Source of the DNA: an uncultured Methanosarcinales archaeon
GTDB taxonomy: Archaea > Nanobdellota > Nanobdellia > Woesearchaeales > JAGLXL01
Direction of reading: 5' to 3'
Assembly (NCBI GenBank): GCA_964472345.1
Contig: CAYYLB010000003.1
Coordinates: 1-40,814, forward strand
DNA: 40,814 nt
Positions 27,001-30,000 of this stretch are shown here, in pieces; position 1 is the stretch's first letter; each line of letters opens with the position of its first letter. A program made the position numbers.

Positions 27001-30000
27001 CAGCTTGGTGAATACCTTCAGCAGCTGCACCGGCTTGCCTGCGAGCTCGCGCTCCGCATGCTCGACAGCAGTCACTTCCGCGGTCAGGTTGCCGGACGGC
27101 ACGCGGAGCTTCTTCAGGAAATCGACGAGCTGGACGCTGCTGCCCTGAGACTGGACATAGAAGTAGGGGCGGAACGCCGGATCCGTGACGCAGATGCGCC
27201 TGCCGTCCGGTGCCTTGCAGAAGAGGTGGATGACCGCAGCCTCGTTGATGATGCGGTAGGTTACGTCCAGCGGATAGACGGTCAGCTGCTCGGTCATGCG
27301 TTTTTCGGGGCTGGCGAGGTATTTAAAAGTGTTGCTCGGGAATGGGGGATTGGGGGTACTGCGTAATGCCCTGCTGAAGGCTGAATAGGACAGAATGCCA
27401 ATCGCGCCTCCGCCTGCGGCTCCGGCGCTGCTGGGGCGGCGGCAGAATGAAGGGCGCACTGCAACGGAGCGGCAGGGGTGCATCGCCGGACGGAGCGCGT
27501 GAGGATGGGAAAGTTTTTTATACCCTCGGAAGGTGTGCGCATGCGTGGGCCTGTGGTCTAACGGTATGACACCACATTGGCAAGCATCCAGACTTGTGGA
27601 GACTCCGGGTTCGATTCCCGGCGGGTCCATAACTCCTAAGATGTGCTTCGTAATGGAAGCGTTGAGCGGTTCGGGAAGCACCGCGTGCGGCTCGTGCTTA
27701 CCAGGAACAATGCAACCCTGATTGCGGCGGGGAAGTGGTGGACAGAAAGCAACTCCACCAGGTGGCGGAACACTACCGGCACCTGAAGCGCTATAAGGCG
27801 AAGCTGTCGCGATGGGGCTACAGCCTGGGCGTGCGCATCCCCAAGGAGCTGGTGCAGCGCTACCGCCTGACGGAGGACAACACAGTGACGATCGTGCCGG
27901 AGAAGGGAGGGATGAAGATTGTGGCGAAGTGACATGCAGCGGGTACGCCACTGACGCACCCTCACTCTCTCGTTGACTACTTCCTGCTCATCCGCAGAAA
28001 CCATTATAAACTTCCCCACCCTATGCTACCCCATGGCAACGAACGACGTGCTGGCTCAGGTGGATGCTGTCCGCTACCTCGGCGAATGGGTGGTCATCTG
28101 CGAGGATCAGGTCGTTGCGCACCACCGCGACCTGACCAGGCTGCAGGATGCGATCGCCCGCTGCAGGCAGACGCCGACCATCGCGAAGATCCCGAAGGAG
28201 GACACGCTAATCTTCTGAGATGGCCATCATCTTTCGGTATGCACATGTCCCCCGCCCTGACGGCACGCTGCGCGATGCTCCTTACATTCCCGTGCTTGTC
28301 CGCCACCGTTCCGGCCGGATGGTGCGTGTCCTTGCCCTTATCGACTCCGGCGCAGACACCACGGTCGTTCCCAAGGATCTCGCCCTCGCTCTTGGCCTCC
28401 ACGAGCGCTCTCCGCCTGAAGAGACCGGAGGGATAGGTGGGAAGGTGCCGGTACGCCGTGCGCAGCTCTCCATTCAGATCCACGGCGGGCGCGAGCGGCA
28501 TTCGCTCACTTTGCCTGTACTTGTTCTTCAGGACGAGAACGCTGACCTCCCGCTGCTTCTTGGACGGCACGGCTTCTTCGAGGAGTTCCACATCACCTTC
28601 AAGCAGGAGCAGCAGAAAATCATGCTCAAGAAGGTCACTCCGCTGAGATCGTACCGGTAGCCGCTGCTTCGATGGCCTCCCCTACCCAAAGGTAAGCCGA
28701 AGCTGCCGTTCCCGTCTGTAGCCGCCTGTGAGCAGCTCCCCCATCCCATCAGGAATGTAGGCCGCTTCAACACGGTTCCGGCCGGAATCCTTTGCAGCAT
28801 ACAGCCTTGCATCTGCGATTTTCAGTACTATGCTTGGATCGTACCGCGCAGGTTTCGTGATCGAGGAGGTGTGGACGACGCCGACGGATACCGTAACAGG
28901 TTTGGGAAGCTTTGTTTCGTCCGATGGGTCCATATCCTCCCCTGATTTTCTTTCGATATAGCTTCTGAGGTCCTCCGCGATACGTTCTGCATTCACCTTG
29001 TCGCATCCCTGCAGGACAATGACGAACTCCTCCCCTCCTGTCCGGCCGAGGCGTGAAACAATGTCTGTTCTGCGCCGGACGCACTCCCGGATGTATCCCG
29101 CGACGTGCTGCAGGACGACATCCCCGCGTGCGTGGCCATACCCATCATTATATCTCTTAAAGTAGTCTATATCCATCGCGATGACTCCCATGCCCTTCGA
29201 GCCCCCATTAAAATGCTCTTCGCGCTTCAATCTCTCAATGTCGTGGGCAAGGAGTGTCTCAAGCGTCGCCTTGTTCGTGAGCCCGGTGAGGCCATCTCGC
29301 TGGACACCCATTTCGTAACGAACCGCCCAAGGCAAAACAATGCAGGCTTTATCAAGAACATCTTGGAGCCTTGCGCGCTCACCATAAGGTAGCTCGGAAG
29401 GATTCCTCCAAAATCTTATAGTGATACTCGGGCAAATGGATAGATCAAACGCTTCAGAATATCCGCAAGAGGGCCCATAAACCTCTGGAGGCTCATCGCC
29501 CGGTGCCACGATGACCTGAACAGGGGCCTGCAGTATCACCTCCAGGACGCGCGCTAAGGCTTCTGCCTTCTCGCTGATGACAAAAGGCCCTTCTGGCACC
29601 CGCACAAGATCGGCAAAGGCACCGTTCTGGGGCAGAGCCAGGCCCGCTTCTCCGGGCATTATCCGGCGTACGCAGCCCTCCAAGGCACTATCTGTTACCA
29701 TCAATAAGTCGTACCTAACTCTATTTATAAATCTTTCTTTTTTAACCACTACTAGGTAGTCATGCACATCACATTTAAATAGAAGCACTGCGTTTCGCCC
29801 ACGATGGCGCGGAACATTTACGAGCGGCTGGACCCCAACACTCATCAATGGGAACAGGATGGCATTGAAACGCTGCTCCAGAAGTATTCCGGCGGCATCC
29901 TGCTGGCACAGACTGTTCCGACAGGGGGCACGCACATCACCTATATCACCCATTTTATCCGGCTGCCGGAAACGGCCGCAGAAAAGCTGTATGAGGCGAT

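Follow-up and report, generated by a model that had tools for sequence, protein, structure and literature searches.

Our analysis identifies a compact two-gene module (61 + 146 residues) in which a gene for a small protein of the DUF5678 family is directly followed by a gene for a retropepsin-like aspartic protease of clan AA. The module lies in the window, by which we mean the whole stretch of 40,814 nucleotides that was analyzed (positions 1 to 40,814 of contig CAYYLB010000003.1, here C3, of GenBank assembly GCA_964472345.1). A preliminary description of this DNA had read the small protein as an inhibitor or substrate that is dedicated to the protease and genetically coupled to it. This reading is supported by the linkage of the two genes, their junctions, the co-divergence of their products and a model of the complex. 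The small protein has, in our judgment, an even chance of being an operon-encoded inhibitor that places its C-terminal tail in the cleft of the protease, as the model would have it. The module is possibly toxin-antitoxin-like. In the literature that we searched, the DUF5678-protease module is not described.

The protease of the window matches the Pfam families Asp_protease_2 (E 3.4e-8), gag-asp_proteas (E 1.3e-6) and RVP (E 5e-4), with 34.5 bits for PF13650 (cut-off 24.3), 29.3 bits for PF13975 (cut-off 28.2) and 20.7 bits for PF00077 (cut-off 20.7). It carries both motifs expected of clan AA, L40-I-D42-S-G-A-D46 and L113-L-G115-R-H-G. D42 and G44 are invariant in all 41 aligned proteases and D46 and G115 are kept in at least 90% of them; G71, I72, G73 and G74 are invariant in the protease alignment A4. 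The AF2 model of the monomer (pLDDT 90) has a retropepsin fold with the flap formed as a beta-hairpin (strands 67–71 and 74–89), and Foldseek lists 267 matches to this model in the PDB (E ≤ 0.001). Best among them is the Rickettsia protease APRc (5c9f; E 6.5e-6, TM 0.62/0.68), followed by the FIV, RSV and HIV proteases. A sequence profile of the protease searched against the PDB finds HIV-1 protease (1.3e-8) as well as the EIAV and FIV proteases and DDI1. The enzyme falls short of the clan_AA_DTGF subfamily TIGR03698, with 30.6 bits where 57.35 are required, and its motif is DSGAD rather than DTGF. No signal peptide is visible in its sequence.

The small protein is a member of PF18929 (Table 1). 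It contains the G-[EK]-W-V-A core of the family, in the form of a G-[EK]-W-V-A-I hairpin that is followed by a helix and a Pro-bearing tail. The AF2 model (pLDDT 83) consists of helix, helix, hairpin (19–31), helix (34–43) and strand (49–52), with a tail of low confidence. That the family shares this core and one invariant proline in the tail had been proposed before; the core stands and both G17 and P54 are conserved in at least 90% of 51 sequences (alignment A2), but the proline is not universal, as it occupies position −8 in 53 of 64 tails. It is missing in a subfamily of about 80 aa and in the type found on contig C69 (see below), both of which retain a hydrophobic C-terminal end. The tail follows the consensus [LI]-[AT]-[RK]-[VI]-P-x-K-E-T-M-I-F and closes with T-M/L-I-F in most pairs; the final residue is F in 46/64 and position −2 is I in 55/64.

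Relatives of the small protein outside its own family are hard to find. Foldseek against the PDB gives none at E ≤ 0.001, the best Z of the wide VIA search is 3.4, and the DUF5678 sequence profile finds nothing in the PDB under E 0.3. Pfam and NCBIfam recognize no DNA-binding family in it, although it may still bind DNA. With neither a recognizable DNA-binding domain nor a fold relative, the small protein does not look like a typical type II antitoxin.

The DUF5678 family extends beyond this module to tandem proteins and many solo genes, and may have other roles as well. Ten of the 16 longest proteins among the top 150 representatives are DUF5678-DUF5678 tandems, and none of these 16 has a protease domain. 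Conversely, PF18929 is found in 0 of 105 protease homologues of 80–256 aa. We could thus not reproduce a 205-aa fusion of DUF5678 and protease that had been mentioned earlier, and a further search for longer forms, which is weak evidence, returned nothing. One DUF5678 cluster of the ESM Atlas is labelled mostly Uroviricota.

In the window the two genes are adjacent and co-directional, with the small gene abutting the gene of the would-be effector, a layout like that of toxin-antitoxin systems. The start codon of the small gene is in line with homologues of 61–62 aa that begin with MA or MS. The position of a TATA-like box in front of it would suggest a leaderless bicistronic transcript, judging from the usual layout of archaeal promoters. 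We rejected a programmed frameshift that fuses both genes, because the protease frame is +1 in the window pair and −1 in the pairs with a 4-nt overlap, which is inconsistent. An AbrB/MazE-like gene upstream, at 27735–27932, was likewise rejected as a third component; among all fetched loci such a gene lies nearby only in the window and in locus L127, where it is a member of a PIN pair. The GC content of the module equals that of its surroundings, and an island beside the tRNA is not supported. In the nearest sampled genome the whole stretch beside polB or atpD is absent, but the contigs break there.

The same genome holds two further pairs, on contigs C69 and C21, and all three are present at the positions given before (Table 1). 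The pair on C21 is indeed convergent and overlapping, and its small protein reaches 25.8 bits against PF18929 (cut-off 23.2). All three small proteins had been assigned to DUF5678. This holds for those on C3 and C21, whereas the one on C69 is only marginal: it scores 14.9 bits (E 0.036), which is below the cut-off, hhalign gives a probability of 6% against DUF5678, and the A2 profile, made from 51 DUF5678 sequences, does not detect it. The C69-type pair forms a conserved family of its own, with a DTGF protease downstream in 9 of 12 homologous loci. A PHROGs search with the six local proteins gave no meaningful match.

Table 1. Features of the window pair (contig C3) and of the two further pairs in the genome
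Feature	Contig	Position	Strand	Basis or remark
TATA-like box cattataaac	C3	28002..28011	+	by eye; ~27 nt 5' of the small-gene ATG
DUF5678 small partner gene, 61 aa	C3	28033..28218	+	ORF; PF18929 E 7.2e-6, 26.2 bits (cut-off 23.2)
Small-protein residues 47–61 PTIAKIPKEDTLIF: strand beta4 and C-terminal tail	C3	28171..28215	+	complex model
Junction TGA-g-ATG, 1-nt spacer between stop and start	C3	28216..28222	+	sequence
Clan AA retropepsin-like aspartic protease gene, 146 aa	C3	28220..28660	+	Pfam, fold and PDB profile matches
Catalytic motif D42-S-G-A-D46 of protease	C3	28343..28357	+	sequence, alignment
Flap tip G70-G-I-G-G74 of protease	C3	28427..28441	+	alignment, AF2 model, contacts
Small ORF	C69	1085–1300	-	overlaps protease by 4 nt
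Protease, 116 aa, DTGFN	C69	735–1085	-	4-nt overlap with small ORF
Small ORF	C21	13237–13455	+	convergent with protease, 24-nt overlap
Protease, 142 aa, DSGAN	C21	13432–13860	-	convergent with small ORF, 24-nt overlap

The protease almost always occurs with its partner. Among 68 loci from other species that were found with the protease, using alignment A4 as query, 64 carry the small gene immediately upstream in the same orientation; the other four are three contig-edge cases and one remnant. Starting from the small gene instead, a census of 401 genomes of the same phylum yielded 73 DUF5678 places in 57 genomes, and 49 of the 73 have an adjacent clan-AA-like ORF (36 by coordinates, 4 by local profiles and 9 in a second subfamily with DTGS ORFs). 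The pair recurs across archaeal and bacterial phyla, as the preliminary description had it, and the linkage is near-obligate in two independently anchored samples. It extends over three or more divergent subfamilies on both sides. The module is present in about 1/6 of the genomes sampled from the phylum, and several phyla of bacteria have it too.

Order and spacing are also fixed. Among 38 adjacent pairs in the 401 genomes, 35 are co-directional with the protease downstream, three are convergent and none has the protease upstream. This number of pairs is far above chance; by our estimate, which is inferred from genomes of about 1 Mb and a window of 400 nt, well under one would be expected. Half of 60 related pairs (30/60) are separated by a 1-nt spacer, 7/60 overlap by 4 nt, and 53/60 fall between −4 and +8 nt. 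This junction pattern points to translational coupling. For the three convergent pairs, that on C21 included, co-transcription is impossible. The two proteins also diverge together: over 54 intact pairs r is 0.926, a value inflated by relatedness, and none of 999 Mantel permutations reaches it.

Outside the pair itself nothing is conserved. The 127 nearest neighbors are mixed housekeeping genes, with only two PIN proteins and one HicB-like protein and neither an integrase nor a transposase among them, so the context is not mobile or defense-like. Phage genomes searched by tblastn with both proteins gave no match. Nor do proteases of this kind need an inhibitor as a rule, since in two planctomycete genomes a DUF5678-like partner was found at only 1 of the 19 other retropepsin-like paralogues sampled.

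The two genes behave asymmetrically. Each of the 55 intact proteases with enough sequence in front of it is preceded by the small gene, and 9 of 64 proteases are truncated or split next to an intact small gene. In turn, 17 of the DUF5678 places that we examined have no adjacent intact protease. Those broken proteases that lie in metagenome bins may be errors of assembly. An inhibitor is favored over a substrate by this asymmetry, in which small genes often stand alone, proteases do not, and proteases are found broken next to intact small genes.

A model of the complex suggests how the two products could interact. Prediction of a 2:2 complex of protease and small protein gave an ipSAE of 0.87 (0.87, 0.88 and 0.84 in three runs), compared with 0.01 for the best of three controls; 116 of 157 solved complexes attain the mark used for this score, as do 2 of 215 mismatched pairs. 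In this job two copies of the protease were folded and the score covers the partner interface only. At least 84% of contacts are common to the runs, with a partner pLDDT of 77 or more. All residues from 47 to 61 of the small protein touch the protease, where the interface comprises residues 42, 44–47, 67–72 and 109–113; contacts with the flap involve residues 67–72 and 75. This region is predicted to lie against the catalytic loop, the flap (GGIGG) and the P111–L113 loop, and the best-defined contacts run strand to strand, from protease residues 35–38 to residues 47–52 of the small protein. The earlier placement of the C-terminal tail in the active-site cleft is thus upheld by the modelled score and by tail contacts with the catalytic loop, flap and P1-pocket loop, on an interface that was read from contact lists, without coordinates, and with a method that can put flexible tails into clefts. 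Since both tails touch the catalytic loop in the 2:2 model, neither would span the whole cleft like a full substrate.

From these pieces we propose the following mechanism. The two genes would form a small operon, probably leaderless and translationally coupled. Their products would assemble into a symmetric 2:2 complex, in which a homodimer of the cytoplasmic, retropepsin-like protease carries two copies of its dedicated partner, the small alpha/beta protein DUF5678. The last strand of the globular part (residues 47–52) would dock on the protease strand 35–38 that leads to the catalytic Asp42, and the tail, ...[VI]-P-x-K-E-T-[ML]-I-F-COOH, would enter the substrate cleft to touch the D42-S-G-A-D loop, the GGIGG flap and the P111–L113 loop. 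The small protein could then be an inhibitor, encoded in trans, that mimics a substrate or a product. As a detachable pro-segment it would silence an intracellular protease that might do harm, until the segment is removed or degraded. Genetically, the pair resembles a cassette in the style of type II toxin-antitoxin systems: the small gene leads, the unit is self-contained, patchy and multi-copy, and the small gene outlives the protease. Inhibition, a toxicity of the protease and a trigger of release are what we infer here.

One could also argue that the small protein is a dedicated substrate or precursor, whose tail the protease cuts, for example beside the conserved proline, to yield a short C-terminal peptide or an active globular part. 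Tight genetic coupling fits this argument equally well. Retropepsins often cut before proline, most tails have one at −8, and an earlier model of two protease copies with the small protein reportedly put it into the cleft; the elements under our modelled tail, namely catalytic loop, flap and P1-pocket loop, agree with a substrate too. However, the subfamily of about 80 aa and the C69 type lack the proline and yet keep their hydrophobic C-terminal end. A fixed protein end, with F as the last residue in most tails, is more in keeping with a product-like ligand that has a free carboxylate than with an internal scissile bond. In addition, a substrate does not predict that solo proteases are absent while solo small genes are common. 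It is unlikely, in our view, that the small protein is a substrate.

Near-obligate linkage would equally be seen if the small protein were a structural subunit, chaperone or activator without which the protease is inactive, its added strand completing or stabilizing the dimer. The strand-to-strand contacts, which are the best defined in the model, agree with this, and the few characterized bacterial peptidases of family A2 involve other activating protein factors, according to the available part of one article (PMC11957791). Yet the modelled tail sits on substrate-binding elements and would block substrates, and the protease monomer is predicted to fold with high confidence without any partner. 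Nor does this reading predict small genes that stand alone, or broken proteases next to intact small genes. We regard an activator as rather improbable. Finally, the adjacency could be meaningless, produced by hitch-hiking of unrelated small genes or by gene calling. We found no point in favor of this, although both ORFs are short and the small ORF on C69 is marginal as a DUF5678 protein. Linkage that persists across phyla of archaea and bacteria and in divergent subfamilies of both partners, fixed order and junction, co-divergence, and a complex model that passes its controls make it hardly credible.

If the small protein is an inhibitor, as we prefer, this would be the first function for DUF5678 and for a widespread subfamily of prokaryotic retropepsin-like proteases. 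It would also be a case in which a separate gene provides a natural protein that inhibits an active site of the retropepsin type. Should the protease be toxic, an aspartic protease would join the known effectors of toxin-antitoxin and defense systems, and the module would be an evolutionary parallel to the way retroviruses restrain their own protease.

Among prokaryotic retropepsin-like proteases, APRc of Rickettsia (which is membrane-embedded), RimB of Pseudomonas and the single-domain clan AA peptidases of COG3577 and COG5550 share the fold of the window protease; the available parts of the sources describe no DUF5678 partner for them. RimB, a retropepsin-like enzyme of the cytoplasm, acts as part of a dedicated complex, as stated in the available part of its description (PMC11957791). 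Its partners are RimA and RimK, and its substrate is polyglutamylated RpsF. Of prokaryotic clan AA ORFs of about 120 aa little was known as of 2009, according to the accessible part of a survey (PMC2642776).

PDC-M52 and PDC-M08 are candidate two-gene phage-defense systems of PADLOC that are not named in the literature we searched. Their "B" proteins are homologous to the protease (E 3.8e-8 for that of the window), and 38 of 41 aligned proteases match PDC-M52B and 22 of 41 PDC-M08B. The "A" models match none of 51 aligned small proteins and none of 14 further ones from other subfamilies and bacteria, so that the combination of A and B is not found here. In type II systems such as MazE-MazF, the tail of the antitoxin lies in the active site of the toxin. 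Our module resembles them in that the small gene comes first, the frames abut or overlap, the unit is self-contained, multi-copy and patchy, and the upstream gene is more often found alone. It differs in that DUF5678 has no recognizable DNA-binding domain and in its three convergent pairs. Neither window protein matches a known toxin-antitoxin family in Pfam or NCBIfam, and no aspartic-protease toxin is described in the literature searched.

The predicted mode of binding has precedents in staphostatin-staphopain, Spi-SpeB and the subtilisin propeptide (I9). There a cytoplasmic protein encoded beside the protease binds the cleft in a substrate- or product-like manner and protects the producer, and the subtilisin propeptide is itself a small alpha/beta domain with its C-terminal tail in the cleft. 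Those enzymes are secreted cysteine or serine proteases, whereas ours is an aspartic, retropepsin-like protease with no visible signal peptide, and DUF5678 has no sequence or fold match to any solved protein.

The retroviral counterpart is p6* of HIV, for which a free C-terminal tetrapeptide is required. The viral protease follows p6* directly and is inhibited in vitro by recombinant p6* peptides, according to the available part of one study (PMC4451514). In HIV-1 one polyprotein contains both p6* and the protease, and cleavage frees p6*; in our module a stop codon separates two genes. DUF5678 also has a folded alpha/beta domain, and the likeness is an analogy. The gene boundary ...T-M-I-F / M-T-I-S-F... 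may be a former autoprocessing site. We tentatively suggest, with well under even confidence, that the module represents a new class of protein toxin-antitoxin or abortive-defense module, in which a cytoplasmic retropepsin-like toxin would be held by an antitoxin with a product-mimicking tail and a small novel fold, as the free-living, split-gene counterpart of the retroviral p6*-protease zymogen arrangement.

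Our results show that a small gene and a protease gene recur together. In the window they are separated by a single nucleotide (TGA-g-ATG). The 61-aa product of the first matches DUF5678 (Pfam E 7.2e-6, 26.2 bits; cut-off 23.2), and the 146-aa product of the second matches Asp_protease_2 (3.4e-8), gag-asp_proteas (1.3e-6) and RVP (5e-4); NCBIfam TIGR03698 matches the protease below its cut-off only (30.6 vs 57.35). The protease carries the motifs L-I-D42-S-G-A-D46, a hairpin tip G70-G-I-G-G74 and L-L-G115-R-H-G, of which D42 and G44 are invariant among 41 aligned sequences. The profile of these 41 proteases matches the solved HIV-1, EIAV and FIV proteases and DDI1 (1.3e-8 to 4.6e-5), and the AF2 model of the window protease (pLDDT 90) is closest to the Rickettsia retropepsin-like enzyme APRc (5c9f, E 6.5e-6), followed by FIV, RSV and HIV proteases. 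The small protein is modelled as two short helices, a hairpin, a helix, a strand and a low-confidence tail (pLDDT 83); fold and sequence-profile comparison found no solved structure resembling it. Since a TATA-like box can be read about 27 nt upstream of the small-gene ATG, the sequence suggests a leaderless transcript.

Features of the window, of the other local copies and of related loci
Feature	Position	Strand	Remarks
1416-aa protein	17816-22066	+	signal-like N-terminus; subtilase-type motifs DTGID, GHGTHVAG, SGTSMATPH
294-aa ORF	22398-23282	+	GC 0.37-0.44 vs about 0.62 around
tRNA gene, 83 nt	27547-27629	+	Rfam 55.9 bits; missed by ARAGORN
AbrB/MazE-like antitoxin-type gene	27735-27932	+	Pfam MazE_antitoxin 7.7e-7; NCBIfam doc_partner below cut-off
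Small gene, DUF5678, 61 aa	28033-28218	+	ORF, Pfam
Retropepsin-like protease gene, 146 aa	28220-28660	+	ORF, Pfam
GGDEF diguanylate cyclase, 423 aa	28682-29953	-	Pfam 3.4e-34; GC 0.52-0.56 vs flanks 0.60-0.64
159-aa ORF, no family	29804-30283		follows GGDEF gene
C69 protease, 116 aa, DTGFN	C69:735-1085	-	overlaps small ORF by 4 nt
C69 small ORF	C69:1085-1300	-	overlaps protease by 4 nt
C21 pair, convergent	C21:13237-13860	small ORF +; protease -	24-nt overlap; protease 142 aa, DSGAN
Convergent pair, second genome	G165:C8:63392-63947		overlapping at 3' ends
Convergent pair, third genome	G199:C24:4596-5083		overlapping at 3' ends
Gyrase B gene adjoining one module	L106:2562-4418	+	intein (Pfam Intein_splicing 1.7e-11)

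The preliminary description reported three copies of this module in the genome. Whole-genome searches find exactly three proteases, at the coordinates it gave, which confirms the observation, and linkage from both anchors (DUF5678 and protease), junctions and a 2:2 model extend it considerably. Its assignment of the C69 small protein to DUF5678 is marginal (Pfam E 0.036, hhalign probability 6%, undetected by a profile of 51 aligned small proteins). Nevertheless, because 9 of 12 other loci with homologues of this protein have a DTGF-type protease downstream, the C69 pair represents the same architecture in a third, divergent form. Two further genomes share the convergent layout of the C21 pair, which is therefore a kept arrangement and no accident. 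With this layout each gene should have a promoter of its own, and antisense effects at the 3' ends are possible.

Across all prokaryotes, a scan with a protease alignment (one genome per species) returned 68 loci, 64 of which have a same-strand small ORF upstream. In the other four, the protease lies at a contig edge (three loci, among them L158 in a Bifidobacteriaceae-labelled bin, with no room upstream) or is a 30-residue remnant. The loci are labelled Woese-, Pace-, Nano-, Iain- and Micrarchaeota among archaea and Planctomycetota, Verrucomicrobiota, Anaerolineae and one Alcaligenaceae bin among bacteria; Patescibacteria, previously named as carriers, are absent from this set.

Within 401 genomes of the window's phylum, DUF5678 (PF18929) occurs at 73 places in 57 genomes and the protease profile at 78 places in 63. 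Coordinates place 38 pairs no more than 400 nt apart. In 35 of them both genes share a strand and the protease comes second; the remaining three are convergent, and the protease is upstream in none. Strong protease matches (E <= 1e-15) are paired in 34 of 42 cases. Local profiles added four divergent proteases (L067, L069, L088, L092) and showed that four seemingly unpaired ones (L053, L096-L098) have a divergent small ORF upstream after all. Members of another DUF5678 subfamily, about 80 aa long and with the ending ...FVSKxKxIL, precede a DTGS ORF on the same strand at nine loci; this ORF has about 150 aa at eight of them and is broken into two at L083. Seven of eight such ORFs sent to Pfam have weak aspartyl-protease matches, all below cut-offs. 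In total, a clan-AA-like ORF adjoins 49 of the 73 DUF5678 places, and 17 examined places have no adjacent protease (two at contig ends, one with a remnant only); outside both counts are six places with an ORF undetected by profile and one in the unpublished genome G359.

The junction itself is tight. Among 60 co-directional pairs with the protease start placed by profile, 30 have a spacer of exactly 1 nt and seven a 4-nt overlap; in 53 the distance is between -4 and +8 nt. Pairwise identities of both proteins correlate (r 0.926 over 54 intact pairs, a value inflated by shared ancestry and equalled by 0 of 999 permutations), demonstrating that both genes travel together. No wider neighbourhood is conserved among 127 nearest neighbours, which include aminoacyl-tRNA synthetases, polymerases and translation factors and only two PIN proteins and one HicB-like protein; the module is thus a self-contained cassette.

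Several other features of the window deserve mention in their own right. The AbrB/MazE-like gene lies 100 nt upstream of the DUF5678 gene with no toxin gene adjoining; about eight AbrB-like ORFs occur in the genome, and the gene is absent from the module at other loci, so we rejected it as a part. Between it and a family-B DNA polymerase gene lies the 83-nt tRNA gene, which may contain an intron or an unusual arm. The GGDEF gene sits in a small DPANN-type archaeal genome. The N-terminus of the 294-aa ORF, perhaps a Bro-N/KilA-type mobile-element protein, resembles ORFs beside solo small genes in two loci (L080, L204). The 1416-aa protein is rich in N-x-S/T sites, contains a long poly-Gly stretch and has a membrane anchor at its C-terminus; it is probably a protease of the cell surface.

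How could the two proteins interact? A model of two proteases and two small proteins, with separate alignments for each, scores 0.87 (runs 0.87, 0.88 and 0.84; best of three controls 0.01), a mark that 116 of 157 solved complexes attain, as do 2 of 215 mismatched pairs, although these counts are only rough for this design. At least 84% of contacts are shared between runs, partner pLDDT is at least 77 and the interface is identical for both copies. It comprises small-protein residues 4-19, 33-42 and all of 47-61 and protease residues 8-14, 22-40, 42, 44-47, 49, 67-72, 75, 78 and 109-113. Confidence is highest for the contacts that join protease strand 35-38 to small-protein residues 47-52. Given these modelled residues, the tail would lie on the catalytic loop, the flap hairpin and the loop before L-L-G-R, whose counterpart in retroviral proteases lines the P1 pocket. 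An earlier model with the tail in the cleft agrees and now becomes a symmetric 2:2 assembly. Ten proteins of 118-254 aa (P0038, P0059, P0114, P0124, P0127, P0130, P0071, P0030, P0045, P0153) carry tandem DUF5678 domains without a protease domain; two domains per chain would match the modelled stoichiometry.

The preliminary description cautiously read the module as a protease with a dedicated inhibitor or substrate, and our results support this. The most likely mechanism, which we hold with about as much belief as doubt, is that the small protein is a tail-in-cleft inhibitor encoded in trans. It is favoured because the small protein has a conserved hydrophobic or aromatic end, as would be typical of a product-like ligand with a free carboxylate. 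The C-termini are in register with the consensus [LI]-[AT]-[RK]-[VI]-P-x-K-E-T-M-I-F; of 64 tails, 46 end in F and six in Y, 55 have Ile at position -2 and 53 Pro at -8, and bacterial ones end in ...KVIYR, ...VAIY or ...VVIYALH. Inhibition is also favoured because the small gene accompanies all 55 intact proteases with room upstream, whereas it commonly occurs without a protease in the phylum sample, and because truncated or split proteases stand beside an intact small gene in nine of 64 cases, with more disrupted copies in the phylum sample, although broken genes in metagenome bins may be assembly errors. This would be the pattern of a gene harmful without its partner. It is not obviously expected if the small protein were a substrate, which we consider unlikely, or a cofactor; that it activates the protease seems to us more unlikely still.

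Other observations speak against inhibition: three pairs are convergent, DUF5678 also occurs solo and as tandem duplications, and only one of 19 other retropepsin-like paralogues sampled in two planctomycete genomes has a small partner. One planctomycete genome (G401, that of locus L155) has 22 Asp_protease_2 and five DUF5678 matches, with a large expansion of retropepsin-like ORFs of about 150 aa, most without a detectable DUF5678 partner. A previously noted DUF5678-protease fusion was not reproduced in a search of DUF5678 proteins and protease homologues.

Whether the module is a toxin-antitoxin-like or defence cassette is more doubtful than inhibition itself. Homologous proteases match the protease components of two PADLOC candidate two-gene phage-defence systems (PDC-M52B 38 of 41, PDC-M08B 22 of 41), and the 'A' models of these systems matched none of the 51 aligned small proteins or 14 further ones; we regard the match as a lead, not as membership. 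No DNA-binding signature was found in the small protein, no mobile or defence-like context around the module and neither gene in the phage genomes of the collection searched; module GC content equals that of the flanks.

The searched literature contains no description of the module, names DUF5678 only in unrelated work, does not mention 'retropepsin-like' jointly with 'toxin-antitoxin' and lacks PDC-M52 and PDC-M08. Apart from APRc, RimB and secreted retropepsin-like enzymes of Pseudomonas, broader searches led to nothing but a survey from 2009, which calls prokaryotic clan AA ORFs of about 120 residues little known (PMC2642776). Parallels do exist, among them the pro-domain of subtilisin and the inhibitors that accompany bacterial cysteine proteases in their operons. 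The closest functional parallel is HIV p6*, which immediately precedes the viral protease and whose peptides inhibit it in vitro (PMC4451514). Hence, the kind of system is already known, but not this version of it, in which the enzyme is an aspartic retropepsin-like one, the small fold is new and the genes are separate.
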